64,000 nt of DNA from Candidatus Micrarchaeota archaeon. GTDB taxonomy: Archaea > Micrarchaeota > Micrarchaeia > Norongarragalinales > SBBD01. The notes beneath the pieces are model-generated. The model had not been told where the DNA came from. It saw only the letters and a list, made by a program, of their open reading frames with translations, and did no database searches. Location: positions 3,897-67,896 of the forward strand of contig JACRGC010000002.1 in the NCBI GenBank assembly GCA_016212475.1. The letters run 5' to 3'. The position numbers were made by a program, and so were the translations under genes. Position 1 is the first letter of the stretch; every line of letters begins with the position of its first letter. Positions 3,532 through 48,961 of the stretch are shown piece by piece.

Positions 3532-3721
3532 AATTAAACGTTAAAAACCGTCAACTGCGGATTTTCTTAGCAAATTGAGTATTTTAAACCTAGTGGTTAA
3601 CCTTTAGAGGATATTATAATAATTTCACCATATTAATAATGCAAGGAATATTGCCATATAATGCACGGAATATTGTAATTGGCATTTTTAGCTGAACAAT
3701 CTTATGGATCAGGGAGTATGA

Positions 3722-4831
3722 ATGGAAAATAAGGCAATCGTCATTGGCGCATCAGCAGTAGGCTCAATTACTGCAAAGGAGCTTTCCCGCAGGGGAATTG
3801 AGGTTGATTTGCTGGAAGAGGATTCGCGCGTTGGCAAATTCGGAAAATGCGGAGGGATTTTTTCAAAGCATGGAATGGATTACACGGGTATCAACTACCA
3901 GGATCTGATTTTGAATGAAATCAAGGGCGCAAGGATAATTGCCGGAAAAGAAGAGCTAAATGTCAGAACGCCACAAACGCAGGCAGTTGTTCTTTCAAGG
4001 CAGGCATTTGATGAACGGGCAGCTGATGAGGCAGTTTCCGCCGGAGCAAACCTGCATTTGAATAGCCGCGCCCGCAATTTTGACACAAACGGCAAAATAA
4101 CCGTTAAAACCACCGATAATCATTCTTATTCTGCAAATGTAGCAATCGGTTGCGATGGCAACTCCTCAATTACCGCAAGAAAACTCGAATTTCCTGAAAT
4201 TCCGCAATCTGATTATGTGATCAGCTACCAAGCAGAATTTGACAAGGCAAATGTCCCAACTCCCGACATTGTCGATTTGATTTTGGATCACAAATATTAC
4301 AAGAACTTTTTTGCCTGGACTATACCTATTTCAGATAAGAAAATCCGAATAGGAATTGCAACAACTGAAATCAAAAAAATCGAGGATGCCAAAAAAGCAG
4401 CTTTTGCAGATCCATACCTTTCTTCCCTAATTAAAAACGCCAATAAAACTTTCGAATTCTACCACATGATTCCCCTAAAATACAGAAAAACAACGCAAAA
4501 AACCTATGGAAGTTCACACGTTCTGCTTGCCGGCGATTCTGCCGGGCAGGTGAAGGCAACTTCCGGCGGTGGAGTCAATTTCGGCGCCAAATGCGCAAAA
4601 GTAGCCGCCGAAGAAACCGCAAATTACCTTCTTCATGAAAAACCCCTCGAATACGAAAAAAACTGGCGAAAAAAACACGGAAAAACCCTCAAATTCCACT
4701 ATATTCTCCACCGGATGTACCGATTGATGCCCAATTGGCTCTCTGAAATGGGAATAGGTGTCAGCCGGCGAATCGGCATGCAGCCCCTGCTTGAAAAATA
4801 CGGGGATATGGATTATGTGTTCAAAATTTGA
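3722..4831 (+). CDS. Geranylgeranyl reductase family FAD-dependent oxidoreductase
   Basis: Rossmann IGAS..G, CGG, R..FD, GCDG, LAGDSAGQVKATSGGG motifs. Confidence 0.88.
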   Translation: MENKAIVIGASAVGSITAKELSRRGIEVDLLEEDSRVGKFGKCGGIFSKHGMDYTGINYQDLILNEIKGARIIAGKEELNVRTPQTQAVVLSRQAFDERAADEAVSAGANLHLNSRARNFDTNGKITVKTTDNHSYSANVAIGCDGNSSITARKLEFPEIPQSDYVISYQAEFDKANVPTPDIVDLILDHKYYKNFFAWTIPISDKKIRIGIATTEIKKIEDAKKAAFADPYLSSLIKNANKTFEFYHMIPLKYRKTTQKTYGSSHVLLAGDSAGQVKATSGGGVNFGAKCAKVAAEETANYLLHEKPLEYEKNWRKKHGKTLKFHYILHRMYRLMPNWLSEMGIGVSRRIGMQPLLEKYGDMDYVFKI

Positions 4832-45817: not shown

Positions 45818-46101
45818 CGCCTTGGCCGGGATTTCCTTGCCTGAAATTGGCGGAGCCGCAAAATCCTTTCTTTGGCGGAGCCACACGCCTTTCAATCAAA
45901 ACTATTTTTGATGAACCTTTTTTGAAAAAGGTTCAAAGAAAGGCAAGGCATTCGGACCCGGGTCAAGGGCTGTTTGTTAAACCGTTTTCTTCGATTCGAA
46001 AAAACTCACTTCCTTTTCTTTTTCCGAAGCGCTTTTTCTTTTCGAGAAAAGAAAAAGGTTTAGCGACAAGCCCCTATGCTGGACCACTACACTACCAAGG
46101 C
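45818..46101 (-). tRNA. tRNA-Asp(GTC) with two introns: 37/38 (46063-45972, 92 nt) and 59/60 (45950-45832, 119 nt)
   Basis: Spliced: GCCTTGGTAGTGTAGTGGTCCAGCATAGGGGCTTGTCG|AGCCCTTGACCCGGGTCCGAA|TCCCGGCCAAGGCG. Strict BHB at 37/38 (TTGT/ACAA, outer TAAACC/GGTTTA); relaxed BHB in the T-loop (TCC/GGA). Confidence 0.93.
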
Positions 46102-46220
46102 ATCTAAGGCTATTTCTTTGGGAAGCAACAAATAAAAAGGACTCGTTGGCGCAAAATCAGGTTGGCTTAATGGGCAAATTTGGTTGCTGTCAAAATCAAT
46201 CAACCCCAAAATAAGTCAAA

Positions 46221-46619
46221 TCAATTCTGCAAAAGTTTTTCCGCAAACTCTTCAAGTGCAGAATCTTCCTGCTCCTTGCTGGCTTCAAACATGATGAAGC
46301 CATCGCGTATGTTGTTTATTGCAAAGTAGAATAGAAAAATTATAAGCCCTGCAAGAAGGGGGTAAAGATACCTTGCAATATCCGGAATCCTTTCGGCAAA
46401 ATAGCCGTATAATACCGCAAGAAGAGTCGCAAGTGAAAAAATTACCGAAAGCACAATTGCCCCAATTGTCATCCTTCCAAACCCCTGGATTGAATTGGCT
46501 CCGGAAGCAGTGCGCAATACGTCCATGTTTTCCCGGATTTTTTGCCTTGTAATTATTTTTTGGGAAGGAGCTTGTGGAGCTATTAGCTGCCTTCTTTGAG
46601 ATTCGGGTGTTATTGCCAT
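46221..46619 (-). CDS. Membrane protein, 2 TM
   Basis: 132-aa ORF between two tRNA genes with two hydrophobic helices. Confidence 0.7.
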   Translation of the reverse strand: MAITPESQRRQLIAPQAPSQKIITRQKIRENMDVLRTASGANSIQGFGRMTIGAIVLSVIFSLATLLAVLYGYFAERIPDIARYLYPLLAGLIIFLFYFAINNIRDGFIMFEASKEQEDSALEEFAEKLLQN

Positions 46620-46670
46620 GAATTGGTAAATGCAAGGCTGCTTATAATTATTGCGAAAAGAAGAAGAAAA

Positions 46671-46973
46671 TCCCGCAGGCCAGAATTCCAGAATTTAATG
46701 AATTCGCCACAAAAACGTTTTCTTTTGTAGCGACCCTACTTTTCTTTTCGAAAAGAAAAGCCGGGTCGTTTGAACTGGCAACCGTCTGATATCTGGCAGG
46801 CGATTCGACTTCATGTGAAGTCAGCCGAACTACAGTTTCGTCATACCCTTTCTTTTTTTCCAAGGTTAGCGCATACGCAAAGGGCAAATTCCCTTTTTCT
46901 TTTCCGAAGCGCTTTTCTTTTTTGGGAAAAAGAAAAGGTTTGCAGACGCTCAGCCAGATTGAGCTACTGCGGG
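46671..46973 (-). tRNA. tRNA-Tyr(GTA) with three introns: 30/31 (46942-46837, 106 nt), 37/38 (46829-46791, 39 nt), 59/60 (46768-46685, 84 nt)
   Basis: Spliced: CCCGCAGTAGCTCAATCTGGCTGAGCGTCTG|ACTGTAG|ATCAGACGGTTGCCAGTTCAAA|TCTGGCCTGCGGGA. C1:G72 and A73 archaeal Tyr identity; BHB central helices CGTC/GACG, CTG/CAG and TTCA/TGGA. Confidence 0.93.
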
Positions 46974-47114
46974 ATAGTATTCATTTGCAGAAGGATATTT
47001 TTAAATGTATCAAATATGCCCTCGGATTTTGCCGCTTAATTCTTATCCTCCCCGTGCGTTTTTTTGGTTAAGTTTATAAATACTTTATGAGTAATGACGA
47101 ACAAGGTTGATCAC

Positions 47115-48608
47115 ATGACCATTAATTTCCGTTTTATTGGGCTATTTTTCTTGCTATTGATTGCAGTTGCCTCTTTTGCGCATGCAGCGGATAAAACCGT
47201 TGATTCCGAAGCGCGCAAATACGTTTTGAAGGGCGAATCGGCGTCATATTTGATTTTAGCCAACATCACCGGAGGAAAAACCTACTATGTCGTGCAAATT
47301 GATGAGAAAAATTCATTTGTTTTTGATGAAAAGATAAACCCTGTGCTTGATGAGTCGATTCTTCTTGAAGTGCTAAAGGAATATTACAAGCAAAGCGGAG
47401 CAACTGGCTTTACTGAAAACAGCAAAACCGAATTACTCTCCAAATTCAACCAATCAGATGCGCTGTTCAACGCTTGCCACTATGAGTTTTACGAATTCGT
47501 TGAGACGAATTTCTTCTGGGCGCAGTTCAGATGCGTTGATGCTTCAACCGGCAAGGTTTGCGATGCCGCTTTTGCGCAAAGGAAAAGATGGAAGGATGCC
47601 TGGGAAATTTACCGAGAAAAAATACAGCTTTTGAAAACCGCTGCCTCCAAGTCGGAAACCGTGTCCGCACTTGAGCAGATTGAAACTGCTGCAAAGAAAG
47701 CAAAAAATGAAACATTATTCATGGATACCCCGGGCGGTTTTGAATACTTCCTTGGAAAGCCGATGAGCGAGGAAAACAAGTGCTTGTTCCAATACGGGCT
47801 TGTTGATGATGTGATTGCGCTTTCAGCGCCCGCAATGAGGAACAAAATCACCGATATCAATACCGAAGCAAAAGAACTAATCAATATCTACAATTCAAGG
47901 AAGGATGTTGTAAAAGTCAAGGAGCTTCAATCTGAAGGCGCAACCGTATTGCAAAAGGCGGTCAATGCAACCGATTTCATTCGAATCAAGTTCGGGCCAA
48001 CCGACCAAAAATTCAAGGAAATTGAAGCCTCCTATGAAAAACTTAGGAGTGCAACCACTTTAGAATTAGCTTCAAAGAATTTCAATGACATGAAAACCAA
48101 ATATGATGAGCTCCAAAGCATAATCAACAACCCGGAAGGGCTGCTTTCGACTTACAACCGGACTTTTACCAACATAAATGCAGCTGAAATTGCAATCGAA
48201 GCTTCCAAGAAAAAATACGGAAACAATGACGATCGCGTGATCAAGATGAGCAATGAGCGCATCGAGCTTTCAAACCAGCTTGGAGCAATTGACAAGCGGA
48301 TGGCAAACAACTCGGTTGTCACTGCAAAGGAAATCAAGGAAATCGGCGACAAAGCTGAAAATCTCAAGAACCGGGCGCTTGGATTGCCATCAAAGCAAAA
48401 CGAGCTTGATCTTTCAGTAATTGCCGCAATTGTTGTGATTGTAGTTGCAATTATCGGCGTAATTCTGATGAAAAAAAGAAAATCTGGCGGCAATCACAAG
48501 GAAGTTAGCATAAAGGATGTGATGGGCTCTGGAACCGAAAAAAGGCAGCTCGAGCGCGAAAAGGTCGACGAGTCGCAAAACAGGAAGGCGATGTTCCCCA
48601 AGCTATGA
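47115..48608 (+). CDS. Exported coiled-coil protein with C-terminal TM anchor
   Basis: Signal peptide ending AHA, helical body with four Cys, TM followed by KKRK; start 47094 or 47115. Confidence 0.8.
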   Translation: MTINFRFIGLFFLLLIAVASFAHAADKTVDSEARKYVLKGESASYLILANITGGKTYYVVQIDEKNSFVFDEKINPVLDESILLEVLKEYYKQSGATGFTENSKTELLSKFNQSDALFNACHYEFYEFVETNFFWAQFRCVDASTGKVCDAAFAQRKRWKDAWEIYREKIQLLKTAASKSETVSALEQIETAAKKAKNETLFMDTPGGFEYFLGKPMSEENKCLFQYGLVDDVIALSAPAMRNKITDINTEAKELINIYNSRKDVVKVKELQSEGATVLQKAVNATDFIRIKFGPTDQKFKEIEASYEKLRSATTLELASKNFNDMKTKYDELQSIINNPEGLLSTYNRTFTNINAAEIAIEASKKKYGNNDDRVIKMSNERIELSNQLGAIDKRMANNSVVTAKEIKEIGDKAENLKNRALGLPSKQNELDLSVIAAIVVIVVAIIGVILMKKRKSGGNHKEVSIKDVMGSGTEKRQLEREKVDESQNRKAMFPKL

Positions 48609-48726
48609 AAAGGCACTTCTTTTTGCTTTTTTTATTTTTTCTTCTTTTCTTGTGTTTACCTATTTTTTTTGTTTTTCAATTGCCCAATTAGGGTTAAAAA
48701 TATCCGCATTCCTATTATTTGCCTAT

Positions 48727-48961
48727 GCAGGGGTGGCAGAGCTTGGTCAAATGCGCAGGGCTTAGGTGAGCCTTTTTCTTTCACGAAAGAAAAAGCTTCG
48801 GGAAAAAGAAAGGTTTCTTAGAAACCCTGTGCCTTAGGGCTGCGAGGGTTCAAACGCCTTGCCTTTCTTTTGTAAAAGAAAGGCGTATGGCGCCGCCAAA
48901 GAAAACAAATTAGCGGCTCCGCCGATTTTGTTGGCAAGGCATGAAAATCCCTTCCCCTGCA
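48727..48961 (+). tRNA. tRNA-Leu(TAG) with two introns: 37/38 (48767-48823, 57 nt) and 59/60 (48855-48947, 93 nt)
   Basis: Spliced: GCAGGGGTGGCAGAGCTTGGTCAAATGCGCAGGGCTTAGG|ACCCTGTGCCTTAGGGCTGCGAGGGTTCAAA|TCCCTTCCCCTGCA. Long variable arm, A73; BHB helices CTTA/TTAG and TTCA/TGAA; T-tract follows. Confidence 0.94.

Follow-up and report, generated by a model that had tools for sequence, protein, structure and literature searches.

The interrupted tRNA genes of a Candidatus Micrarchaeota archaeon carry, within their introns, a module of about 45 nt in which one pyrimidine tract and two purine tracts follow each other on the transcribed strand, in the order pyrimidine-purine-purine (Y-R-R), with the third tract repeating the complement of the first in the same reading direction. 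We describe this three-tract module from a stretch of 64,000 nt of contig JACRGC010000002.1 (assembly GCA_016212475.1; G000:C6:3897-67896, hereafter the window), where the genes for tRNA-Asp(GUC), tRNA-Tyr(GUA) and tRNA-Leu(UAG) each harbour a copy. The pattern is far beyond chance. The reading that we favour, which fits all the sequence facts and to which we would give about an even chance, is that of a portable fold-back triple-helix module belonging to a mobile intron and spacer element and acting in RNA.

The three-tract module

The tRNA-Asp copy lies on the minus strand and reads, from 46058 to 46012, CC-T5-C-T4-C, TC, G-A4-G-A5-G, CGCTTCG and G-A5-G-A4-GG. Its tract 1 (46046..46058) is followed by tract 2 (46032..46043), the reverse complement of tract 1, then by a turn, CGCUUCG in the transcript (46025..46031), which contains C(UUCG)G, and finally by tract 3 (46012..46024), the same-direction complement of tract 1, which it matches exactly over 13 nt compared with 9 nt in the opposite direction. 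The tRNA-Tyr copy, also on the minus strand (46938 to 46891), reads CC-T4-C-T5, CCCA, A5-G-A4-G, CGCTTCG and G-A4-G-A5-GGG, with tract 1 (46927..46938) leading into a CCC loop, tract 2 at 46912..46922 and tract 3 at 46891..46904, the same-direction match being 15 nt long and the opposite one 9 nt. On the plus strand, the tRNA-Leu copy (48771-48813) consists of CC-T5-C-T3-C (tract 1, 48771..48782), AC, G-A3-G-A5-G (tract 2, 48785..48795), the turn CTTCGG, or C(UUCG)G in RNA (48796..48801), and G-A5-G-A3-GG (tract 3, 48802..48813), with matches of 12 nt in the same direction and 7 nt in the opposite one. A C(UNCG)G is found at the tract 2/tract 3 turn of all three window copies. The tract sequences given in the original prediction, which had been made from the letters of the window, all read exactly so on the transcribed strand, and its intron positions (37/38 for Asp, 30/31 for Tyr and 37/38 for Leu) were correct; the intervals that it called introns do cover the module, but not the whole introns, which measure 92, 106 and 57 nt, respectively. 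We also observed that the Asp and Tyr modules are reciprocal, each tract 3 being the Watson-Crick complement of the other's tract 1 (run lengths 5/4 and 4/5).

By the rule common to these copies, tract 2 is reverse complementary to tract 1, and tract 3 gives the complement of tract 1 in unreversed order, over 12-16 nt, which within the stem amounts to tract 3 being the mirror of tract 2. Tract 3 often extends further to face C-rich bases of the loop, CCC standing opposite GGG, although such end blocks pair either way and are therefore uninformative on direction. The Watson-Crick stems are homopurine:homopyrimidine and 8-16 bp long, the apical loops measure 2-6 nt, and the turns have 5-8 nt, are mostly C-rich and are closed by C-G. 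With such a stem, a third purine tract antiparallel and in register with the second (G by G, A by A) and loops able to reverse the chain, the module has, to judge from its letters, what a purine-motif triplex calls for.

Three-way covariation in a larger set

The mirror-type covariation, originally read from three introns, was checked in a larger set and holds there. The source genome (G000), contig C5 left out, and 20 loci of six other genomes were scanned for pyrimidine:purine hairpins. Of the 177 hairpin-strand instances obtained, 82 have a purine tract (9 nt or longer) no further than 40 nt downstream and made up the test set. Tract 1 was matched exactly in the same direction over 11 nt or more in 52/82, and in the opposite direction over such a length in 7/82; the same-direction match was the longer one in 67 instances, the shorter in 6, and tied in 9. 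A partner-swap control, in which the downstream segments were redealt among the modules (2000 trials), averaged 7.3 and peaked at 17. None of the upstream flanks in the source genome had a 10-nt match. The claimed homopurine:homopyrimidine signature is likewise borne out by the perfect hairpins of the source genome (stem of 9 or more, loop 3-8, 148 strand instances), since a third tract accompanies 20 of the 48 instances with a pyrimidine 5' arm and 0 of the 100 mixed-sequence ones, always downstream and never upstream.

Overall, 48 distinct three-way cores were counted, 47 of them asymmetric, and the covariation holds in many genomes. Zero deviation at any aligned position was seen in 45 of 88 loosely called modules, and the aligned columns comprised 698 T/A/A and 177 C/G/G vs 62 in which all three are present and one of them deviates, some chance modules and loop positions being included. 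By raw counts tract 1 deviates least, and it was considered as the hub of the module; this idea was dropped, as the deviations are mostly loop positions, indels and chance modules. A genome-wide search for a Watson-Crick partner of tract 3 in trans found none besides its own opposite strand, the reciprocal Asp/Tyr pair excepted.

Hosts and distribution

A regular expression for the Y-R-R order gave 40 matches in the source genome, 21 of which fit by eye, namely 19 distinct full copies, a duplicate at a contig end and a partial copy. The original prediction had treated the module as an element of tRNA introns; it is indeed found there, but also in tRNA 3' trailers, in a 16S intron, in an rRNA spacer and in positions resembling 3' untranslated regions. 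By eye and with Rfam, the copies of the source genome were traced to introns in many tRNAs and at various positions within them (one gene of contig C17 has as many as three copies) and, outside tRNA introns, to an insert in the 16S rRNA and to the 16S-tRNA-23S spacer. Applied at its E-value threshold to 20 loci of this genome, Rfam reported single-intron tRNAs only, and nothing at the contig-end copy of C3/C5. Another copy (G000:C1:3594-3642, minus strand) lies 4 nt 3' of tRNA-His and 5 nt 5' of the start codon of histidyl-tRNA synthetase. The same order of tRNA-His, module and histidyl-tRNA synthetase was observed in a Norongarragalinales metagenome-assembled genome (MAG; L189, ~3684-3730, minus strand), the start codon coming 5-11 nt after tract 3, and in such copies the purine tract may also serve in ribosome binding or as a site of processing. 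A separate observation concerns contig C14 (~79040-79300, plus strand), where a truncated duplicate of the tRNA-Glu 5' part and its upstream region, with a module in the D-loop region, stands directly before the full gene.

The same rule governs a second family, whose copies are found in T-loop introns and at other sites; here the third tract is preceded by a GC-rich stem and a linker of 4 nt, and the run lengths are 3/4, 3/3, 4/4, 3/6, 5/1 and 5/3. Two of its copies lie between a stop codon and a T-run, as a 3' untranslated region would. The window has one such copy in Leu intron 2, with the pyrimidine tract at 48862-48871 (CCTTTCTTTT), the first purine tract at 48874-48883 and the third tract, AAAGAAAAC, at 48898-48906 after the GC-rich stem, and one in Tyr intron 3 (46718..46760, minus strand), where a hairpin (46760-46739, CTTTTCTTTTC/GAAAAGAAAAG) precedes the third tract AAAAGAAAA (46726-46718). 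The run lengths of the latter, 4/4, are symmetric and so do not inform on direction.

Beyond the source genome, the pattern matched in 17/21 relatives. Overlapping matches in the source genome numbered 48+32, compared with 0+0 for the pattern read backwards, and the backward form is nearly absent from the relatives. In a sample of the phylum 55/151 genomes have a match, some families being rich in them and two large ones at background level (3/46 and 1/25). We also scanned 185,579 species genomes, one per species, for the exact 5/3 mirror pattern, which gave 35 loci with a mirror third tract vs 2 for a direct-repeat control. These loci belong to Micrarchaeota, Aenigmatarchaeota and Altiarchaeota MAGs and to a few bacterial MAG contigs, and in Altiarchaeota 4/4 copies lie 2-6 nt past a tRNA 3' end. 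The bacterial contigs with an exact 5/3 module (L185, L199, L191 and L210) are assigned to Campylobacterales/Sulfuricurvum bins, where an identical copy follows the end of a gene, and to Clostridia/Eubacteriales bins; they may stem from mis-binning, from transfer or from an independent origin.

Two other repeats were encountered. The backward pattern (R-R-Y) is common in one genome (G057) and was excluded from the family, being a different, G-rich intergenic repeat whose linker is too short for a triplex with the tracts in that order. There (L170-L175) an 11-nt purine tract is followed after 8 nt by its mirror and, 3 nt further, by a C-rich tract complementary to the first, in intergenic arrays of more than 30 copies with a spacing of ~130 nt. 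Another genome (G020, L058-L060) has tandem pyrimidine:purine hairpins with a short A-rich third tract that is palindromic with the T-run of the next unit, and several of the third tracts in these arrays mismatch their own tract 1.

Strand, orientation and tetraloops

ARAGORN called a tRNA within 400 nt in 19 of the 35 exact-pattern loci, and the Y-R-R strand was the one concerned in 19/19, with the module inside the called intron in 10 and directly past the 3' end in 5. The copies of the source genome are nearly all sense. Reversed copies were found in its tRNA-Ala(UGC) intron, as a partial copy in a 5' leader, and in four T-loop introns of one Aenigmatarchaeota MAG. Their transcript reads a Hoogsteen-type U-rich tract, C(GCAA/GCGA)G, a U-rich tract, a loop and an A-rich tract, a perfect standard pyrimidine-motif arrangement (U.A-U / C+.G-C). 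Two U-rich tracts and one A-rich tract, with the Hoogsteen strand parallel to the purine one, the strand composition of the triple helices of MALAT1 and the element for nuclear expression (ENE), occur only in the tRNA-Ala intron and the four Aenigmatarchaeota introns, while in all three window copies a single U-rich tract goes with two A-rich ones. The original prediction had left it open whether the motif would be a purine one in the RNA or a pyrimidine one on the opposite strand; both arrangements do occur, mostly Y-R-R and in a few reversed copies Y-Y-R, but both of them in RNA. The four Aenigmatarchaeota T-loop introns (L180, L190, L196 and L204) are ~230 nt long and have internal repeats, with a plain pyrimidine:purine hairpin in their 5' part and the reversed module in their 3' part.

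The cUUCGg turn proposed as a feature of the module, present in all three window copies, did not prove general: among 110 distinct modules a UNCG turn was counted in 15. A closed UNCG or GNRA tetraloop stands at the tract 2/tract 3 turn of these modules in 15 on the Y-R-R strand and in 4 on the complement, and 3 of these 4 belong to reversed copies, in which it is the complement that is transcribed. In apical loops of the same modules there are 26 tetraloops on the Y-R-R strand vs 10 on the complement, and in two genomes of another family the apical loop is UNCG in 9/12 among the modules listed. Given a C/U-rich turn, GNRA arising by chance should be commoner on the complement, and the opposite was observed. 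The placement of the tetraloops points to folding of the transcript, probably including the reversal that would lay tract 3 beside tract 2.

On the transcribed strand, tract 1 of all modules has runs of T5-T6, within tRNA genes. Such runs are archaeal termination signals, and the module-bearing tRNA genes must therefore be read through them. The risk of termination may explain why the orientation with a single U-rich tract predominates.

Mobility and turnover between genomes

The Asp 37/38 site holds a 5/4 module in the source genome and in G004, a 5/3 module in G003 and a 1/5/3 module in G005. The Asp module of G003 is nearly the same as the Tyr module of G006, the Tyr intron of G003 nearly the same as the Asp intron of G005, and the tRNA-Leu of G004 has no anticodon intron. 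In orthologous introns the tracts are kept and the turn is altered (for Asp, CGCTTC in the source genome and CACTCC in G004), and some turns are common to copies within a genome (CCCTAGG and CCTCAACT in G012, CCTTGG in G020, CGCTTC and CCCTCC in the source genome). By these comparisons the module is mobile, and polymorphic between congeneric genomes.

A proposed fold-back triple helix in RNA and its alternatives

The hosts of the module would all be RNA segments that are cut out or untranslated, that is tRNA and 16S introns of the bulge-helix-bulge (BHB) type, tRNA 3' trailers and the rRNA spacer. In such a segment the U-rich tract 1 and the A-rich tract 2 would form an ordinary hairpin, and a tight turn, often closed by a tetraloop, would bring the second A-rich tract back along the first to form A.A-U and G.G-C triples; in the reversed copies, the succession of U-rich tract, turn, U-rich tract, loop and A-rich tract would result in the standard U.A-U / C+.G-C triple helix. 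The fold would presumably be taken up in the transcript when the short closing helix is open, i.e. during transcription or after excision. The discarded segment could thereby gain a compact and self-contained shape, probably resistant to nucleases and unable to mispair with the tRNA body. The function of the module, for which the stabilising of circular introns, the control of splicing or a part in mobility had originally been suggested, is the weakest step of this explanation. A bolder version, in which these are the first natural purine-motif (A.A-U / G.G-C) RNA triple helices and the module is an orientation-reversible cassette that would protect excised or flanking RNA or aid the movement of BHB introns, is possible, although we hold it to be rather doubtful.

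Several points weigh against a triple helix in RNA. The tracts are ~80% A, a poor composition for the purine motif. Most copies in introns have a closing helix of 3-7 bp (GACC/GGUC, GAGCC/GGUUUC or GCAAA/UUUGC, for example), separated by only 0-1 nt from the start (5') of tract 1 and from the end (3') of tract 3. As a full-length triplex sets these two ends ~30 A apart, it cannot coexist with the closing helix; the triplex would thus be restricted to the time of transcription, to a relaxed BHB lacking the inner helix, to the excised intron, or to copies such as those in trailers and in reversed orientation, which have no closing helix. Tract 2 has lost a G that tract 3 retains at two interior positions, as well as in a truncated copy. 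In calculations with ViennaRNA, which scores Watson-Crick and G.U pairs only and no triples, a register-shifted helix of tract 1 with tract 3 beats the hairpin of tract 1 with tract 2 in 13/19 modules of the source genome, and it is the minimum free energy structure for the Leu anticodon arm. As for precedent, purine-motif triplexes with RNA strands are disputed, with evidence on both sides, and the folded natural RNAs reviewed use the pyrimidine motif (PMC7583470).

The ViennaRNA result and the closing helix that abuts both module ends are what one would expect if tracts 2 and 3 competed for tract 1 without any third strand, in a folding switch or timer beside the BHB, the hairpin of tracts 1 and 2 forming first in transcription and the helix of tracts 1 and 3, continuous with the closing helix, being the splicing-competent state. 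The end blocks (CC...CCC and GG...GGG) would serve it too, pairing as they do in either direction. A Watson-Crick competitor, however, should be a reverse complement with swapped runs, and the data go the other way (67 vs 6 instances, 35 loci vs 2); the register-shifted helix leaves the same-direction order of the runs unexplained, above all with several unevenly spaced C's, and antiparallel pairing is clearly worse in modules such as 2/3/4, 1/5/3, 3/4/2 and 6/3/1/3. Considering also the trailer and reversed copies without a closing helix, we regard such a switch as improbable. Still less credit can be given to a structurally idle tract 3, whether the pattern was copied from a few master elements or is bound by a protein through its U-rich and A-rich runs. 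The turn sequences common to copies within a genome do fit recent copying, but there are 48 different cores, each internally consistent, the tracts stay matched while the turns diverge, and three phyla and two unrelated intron architectures obey the same rule; a two-fold symmetric protein, for its part, would presumably need direct rather than mirror repeats.

The structure could instead form in DNA, each strand folding into a triplex of its own, a purine-motif one for the Y-R-R strand and a pyrimidine-motif one for the complement. Negative supercoiling, or a single-stranded state, could then let ~45 bp come out of the duplex, which could stall replication or transcription or provoke a recombination that moves the intron. 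The purine mirror repeat is the classic signature of H-DNA, for DNA the purine motif is well established, and A/T-rich tracts with isolated C/G suit the pyrimidine motif on the complement; there would be no topological conflict, since the flanks stay in their own duplexes. A DNA-level role would also explain without further assumption that copies occur in both orientations, which counts against a role in RNA, and is in keeping with the non-intron sites, with an element that is mobile and polymorphic between congeneric genomes and with the finding of no reverse transcriptase in the 91.6%-complete source genome. It does not account for the strong orientation bias (all the ARAGORN-called loci on the Y-R-R strand and nearly all source-genome copies sense), for the RNA-specific UNCG and GNRA tetraloops on the transcribed strand in either orientation, or for every copy with identifiable surroundings sitting in a transcribed, non-coding RNA segment, and we consider it about as unlikely as the switch between two helices.

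The interest of the module is the following. Natural RNA triple helices are so far few and of the pyrimidine motif, and the RNA purine-motif triplex is a matter of open argument; here dozens of natural variants in three phyla would have been shaped by selection into the purine-motif form, and the reversed copies, giving the standard motif, are a built-in control, so that the question is directly testable with short synthetic RNAs. A conserved core is also defined for a family of mobile archaeal introns.

The tRNA genes and introns of the window

The source genome comprises 1.37 Mb in 17 contigs, with 42% G+C, and the relatives of its ProRS put it among Candidatus Micrarchaeota MAGs. Default ARAGORN called 0 tRNA in the window and Rfam at gathering thresholds 0 RNA families, and in the whole source genome only ~9 uninterrupted tRNAs were called; standard finders see almost no tRNAs in these genomes because the module-bearing introns interrupt the genes. 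Side calls of tRNA-Pyl and tRNA-SeC by ARAGORN at G000:C7:14967-15050 and 104285-104501 look like misread interrupted genes. The genes and introns of the window were delimited by eye and from same-genus orthologues (G003-G006). Three groundwater metagenome DNA runs, all of one study and one of them perhaps the source, matched the 3.1-kb stretch that holds the three genes, and none of the sequencing runs found to match it were RNA data.

The tRNA-Asp(GUC) gene (45818..46101, minus strand), delimited by eye and checked against orthologues, has two introns. Intron 1 (37/38, 92 nt, 45972..46063) contains the module and a second hairpin, and by eye its BHB is canonical, with a UUGU/ACAA helix, the bulges CG|C and AC|A and a closing helix UAAACC/GGUUUA; intron 2 (45832..45950), placed by orthologue comparison, is a T-loop insert that is missing from the tRNA-Asp genes of G003 and G006. 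The tRNA-Tyr(GUA) gene (46671..46973, minus strand), delimited by eye and from orthologues, has three introns, at 30/31, at 37/38 and in the T-loop. In the first of these (30/31, 106 nt, 46837..46942) the module is closed locally by GCAAA/UUUGC. An insert at 30/31 is present in every Tyr gene of the same-genus orthologues compared, and in G005 it is a short plain hairpin intron without the module. The tRNA-Leu(UAG) gene (48727..48961, plus strand), placed by orthologue comparison, has two introns, at 37/38 (57 nt, 48767..48823), where UGAG and UUUCUUAGAA flank the module and the BHB is by eye only a relaxed one (CUUA/UUAG with a U.U mismatch), and in the T-loop (48855..48947), with the second-family copy inside. 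Where this gene has its inserts, both the anticodon loop (CTTAGGA) and the T-loop of the G004 tRNA-Leu are intact. As expected of BHB introns, the inserts thus interrupt a conserved RNA gene, as seen for Leu against G004, for Asp against G003 and G006, and for the 16S copy, which lies inside the small subunit rRNA match. Between the Tyr and Leu genes (47094-48608, plus strand) there is an open reading frame of 504 aa with no Pfam family and a hydrophobic stretch near its C-terminus.

For processing, the source genome encodes a splicing endonuclease in one frame of 414 aa that PF01974 matched twice, i.e. with two domains of catalytic type (G000:C14:41890-42369, minus strand), and an RtcB ligase, with a PF01139 match in two pieces (G000:C17:50332-51668, minus strand). 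A TGA and a TAA lie between or inside the RtcB pieces; an assembly error, a frameshift or an intervening element could be the cause.

Comparison with known systems

In the literature on archaeal and DPANN tRNA introns, BHB splicing, intron transposition, triplexes and Asgard introns (a 2026 preprint), we found no description of a three-tract or mirror-repeat core in archaeal introns, although introns of this kind might be among those in the ARMAN tRNA lists of PMC3239211. The introns described here resemble archaeal BHB introns in their type of host and in occupying canonical and non-canonical positions, with up to three or more per gene, and differ in that the core of the module is also found outside introns. 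The account of ARMAN-2, another member of the Micrarchaeota, in PMC3239211 describes highly disrupted tRNAs and an epsilon2 endonuclease of broad specificity; the single-chain, two-domain endonuclease found here resembles this three-unit type, and RtcB is also encoded. Related introns in different tRNAs, as seen here, are likewise described for the mobile tRNA introns of Thermoproteales (PMC3239211).

The module shares with H-DNA a homopurine mirror repeat with a short spacer, in which G faces G and A faces A antiparallel. It differs from it in its pyrimidine tract on the same strand, which would make the fold of a single strand self-sufficient, and in its location in transcribed RNA genes, its orientation bias and its RNA tetraloops. 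Polypurine reverse Hoogsteen hairpins (PPRHs), a kind of engineered oligonucleotide, have been described as two antiparallel polypurine mirror arms joined by a short loop that bind a polypyrimidine target by Watson-Crick pairs, and an RNA version is reported to be active (PMC8466063). Tracts 2 and 3 with their turn have the form of a PPRH, tract 1 being the target, with the difference that the module is natural, has its target in cis and is A-rich in its tracts.

With the ENE and MALAT1 triple helices the module would share ~10-11 layers in the major groove, U/A-rich with isolated C/G; one solved RNA triple helix is described as having 11 triples, with C.G-C flanked by U.A-U, and the MALAT1 triple helix as adjoining a tRNA-like structure that is removed by RNase P (PMC7583470). 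Many copies of the module likewise lie 2-6 nt past a tRNA 3' end, although the order relative to the tRNA is opposite. The strand chemistry is shared by the reversed copies, most copies having instead one U-rich and two A-rich strands, and the module is without the U-rich internal loop that clamps a 3' tail. In yeast tRNA-Phe, positions 9-23-12 and 46-22-13 form isolated major-groove triples of the A.A-U / G.G-C type. It was in tRNA-Phe that RNA base triples were first seen, according to the same review (PMC7583470). Those purine triples are single ones within a tertiary fold, in contrast to the stack of 10-12 that we propose for the module.

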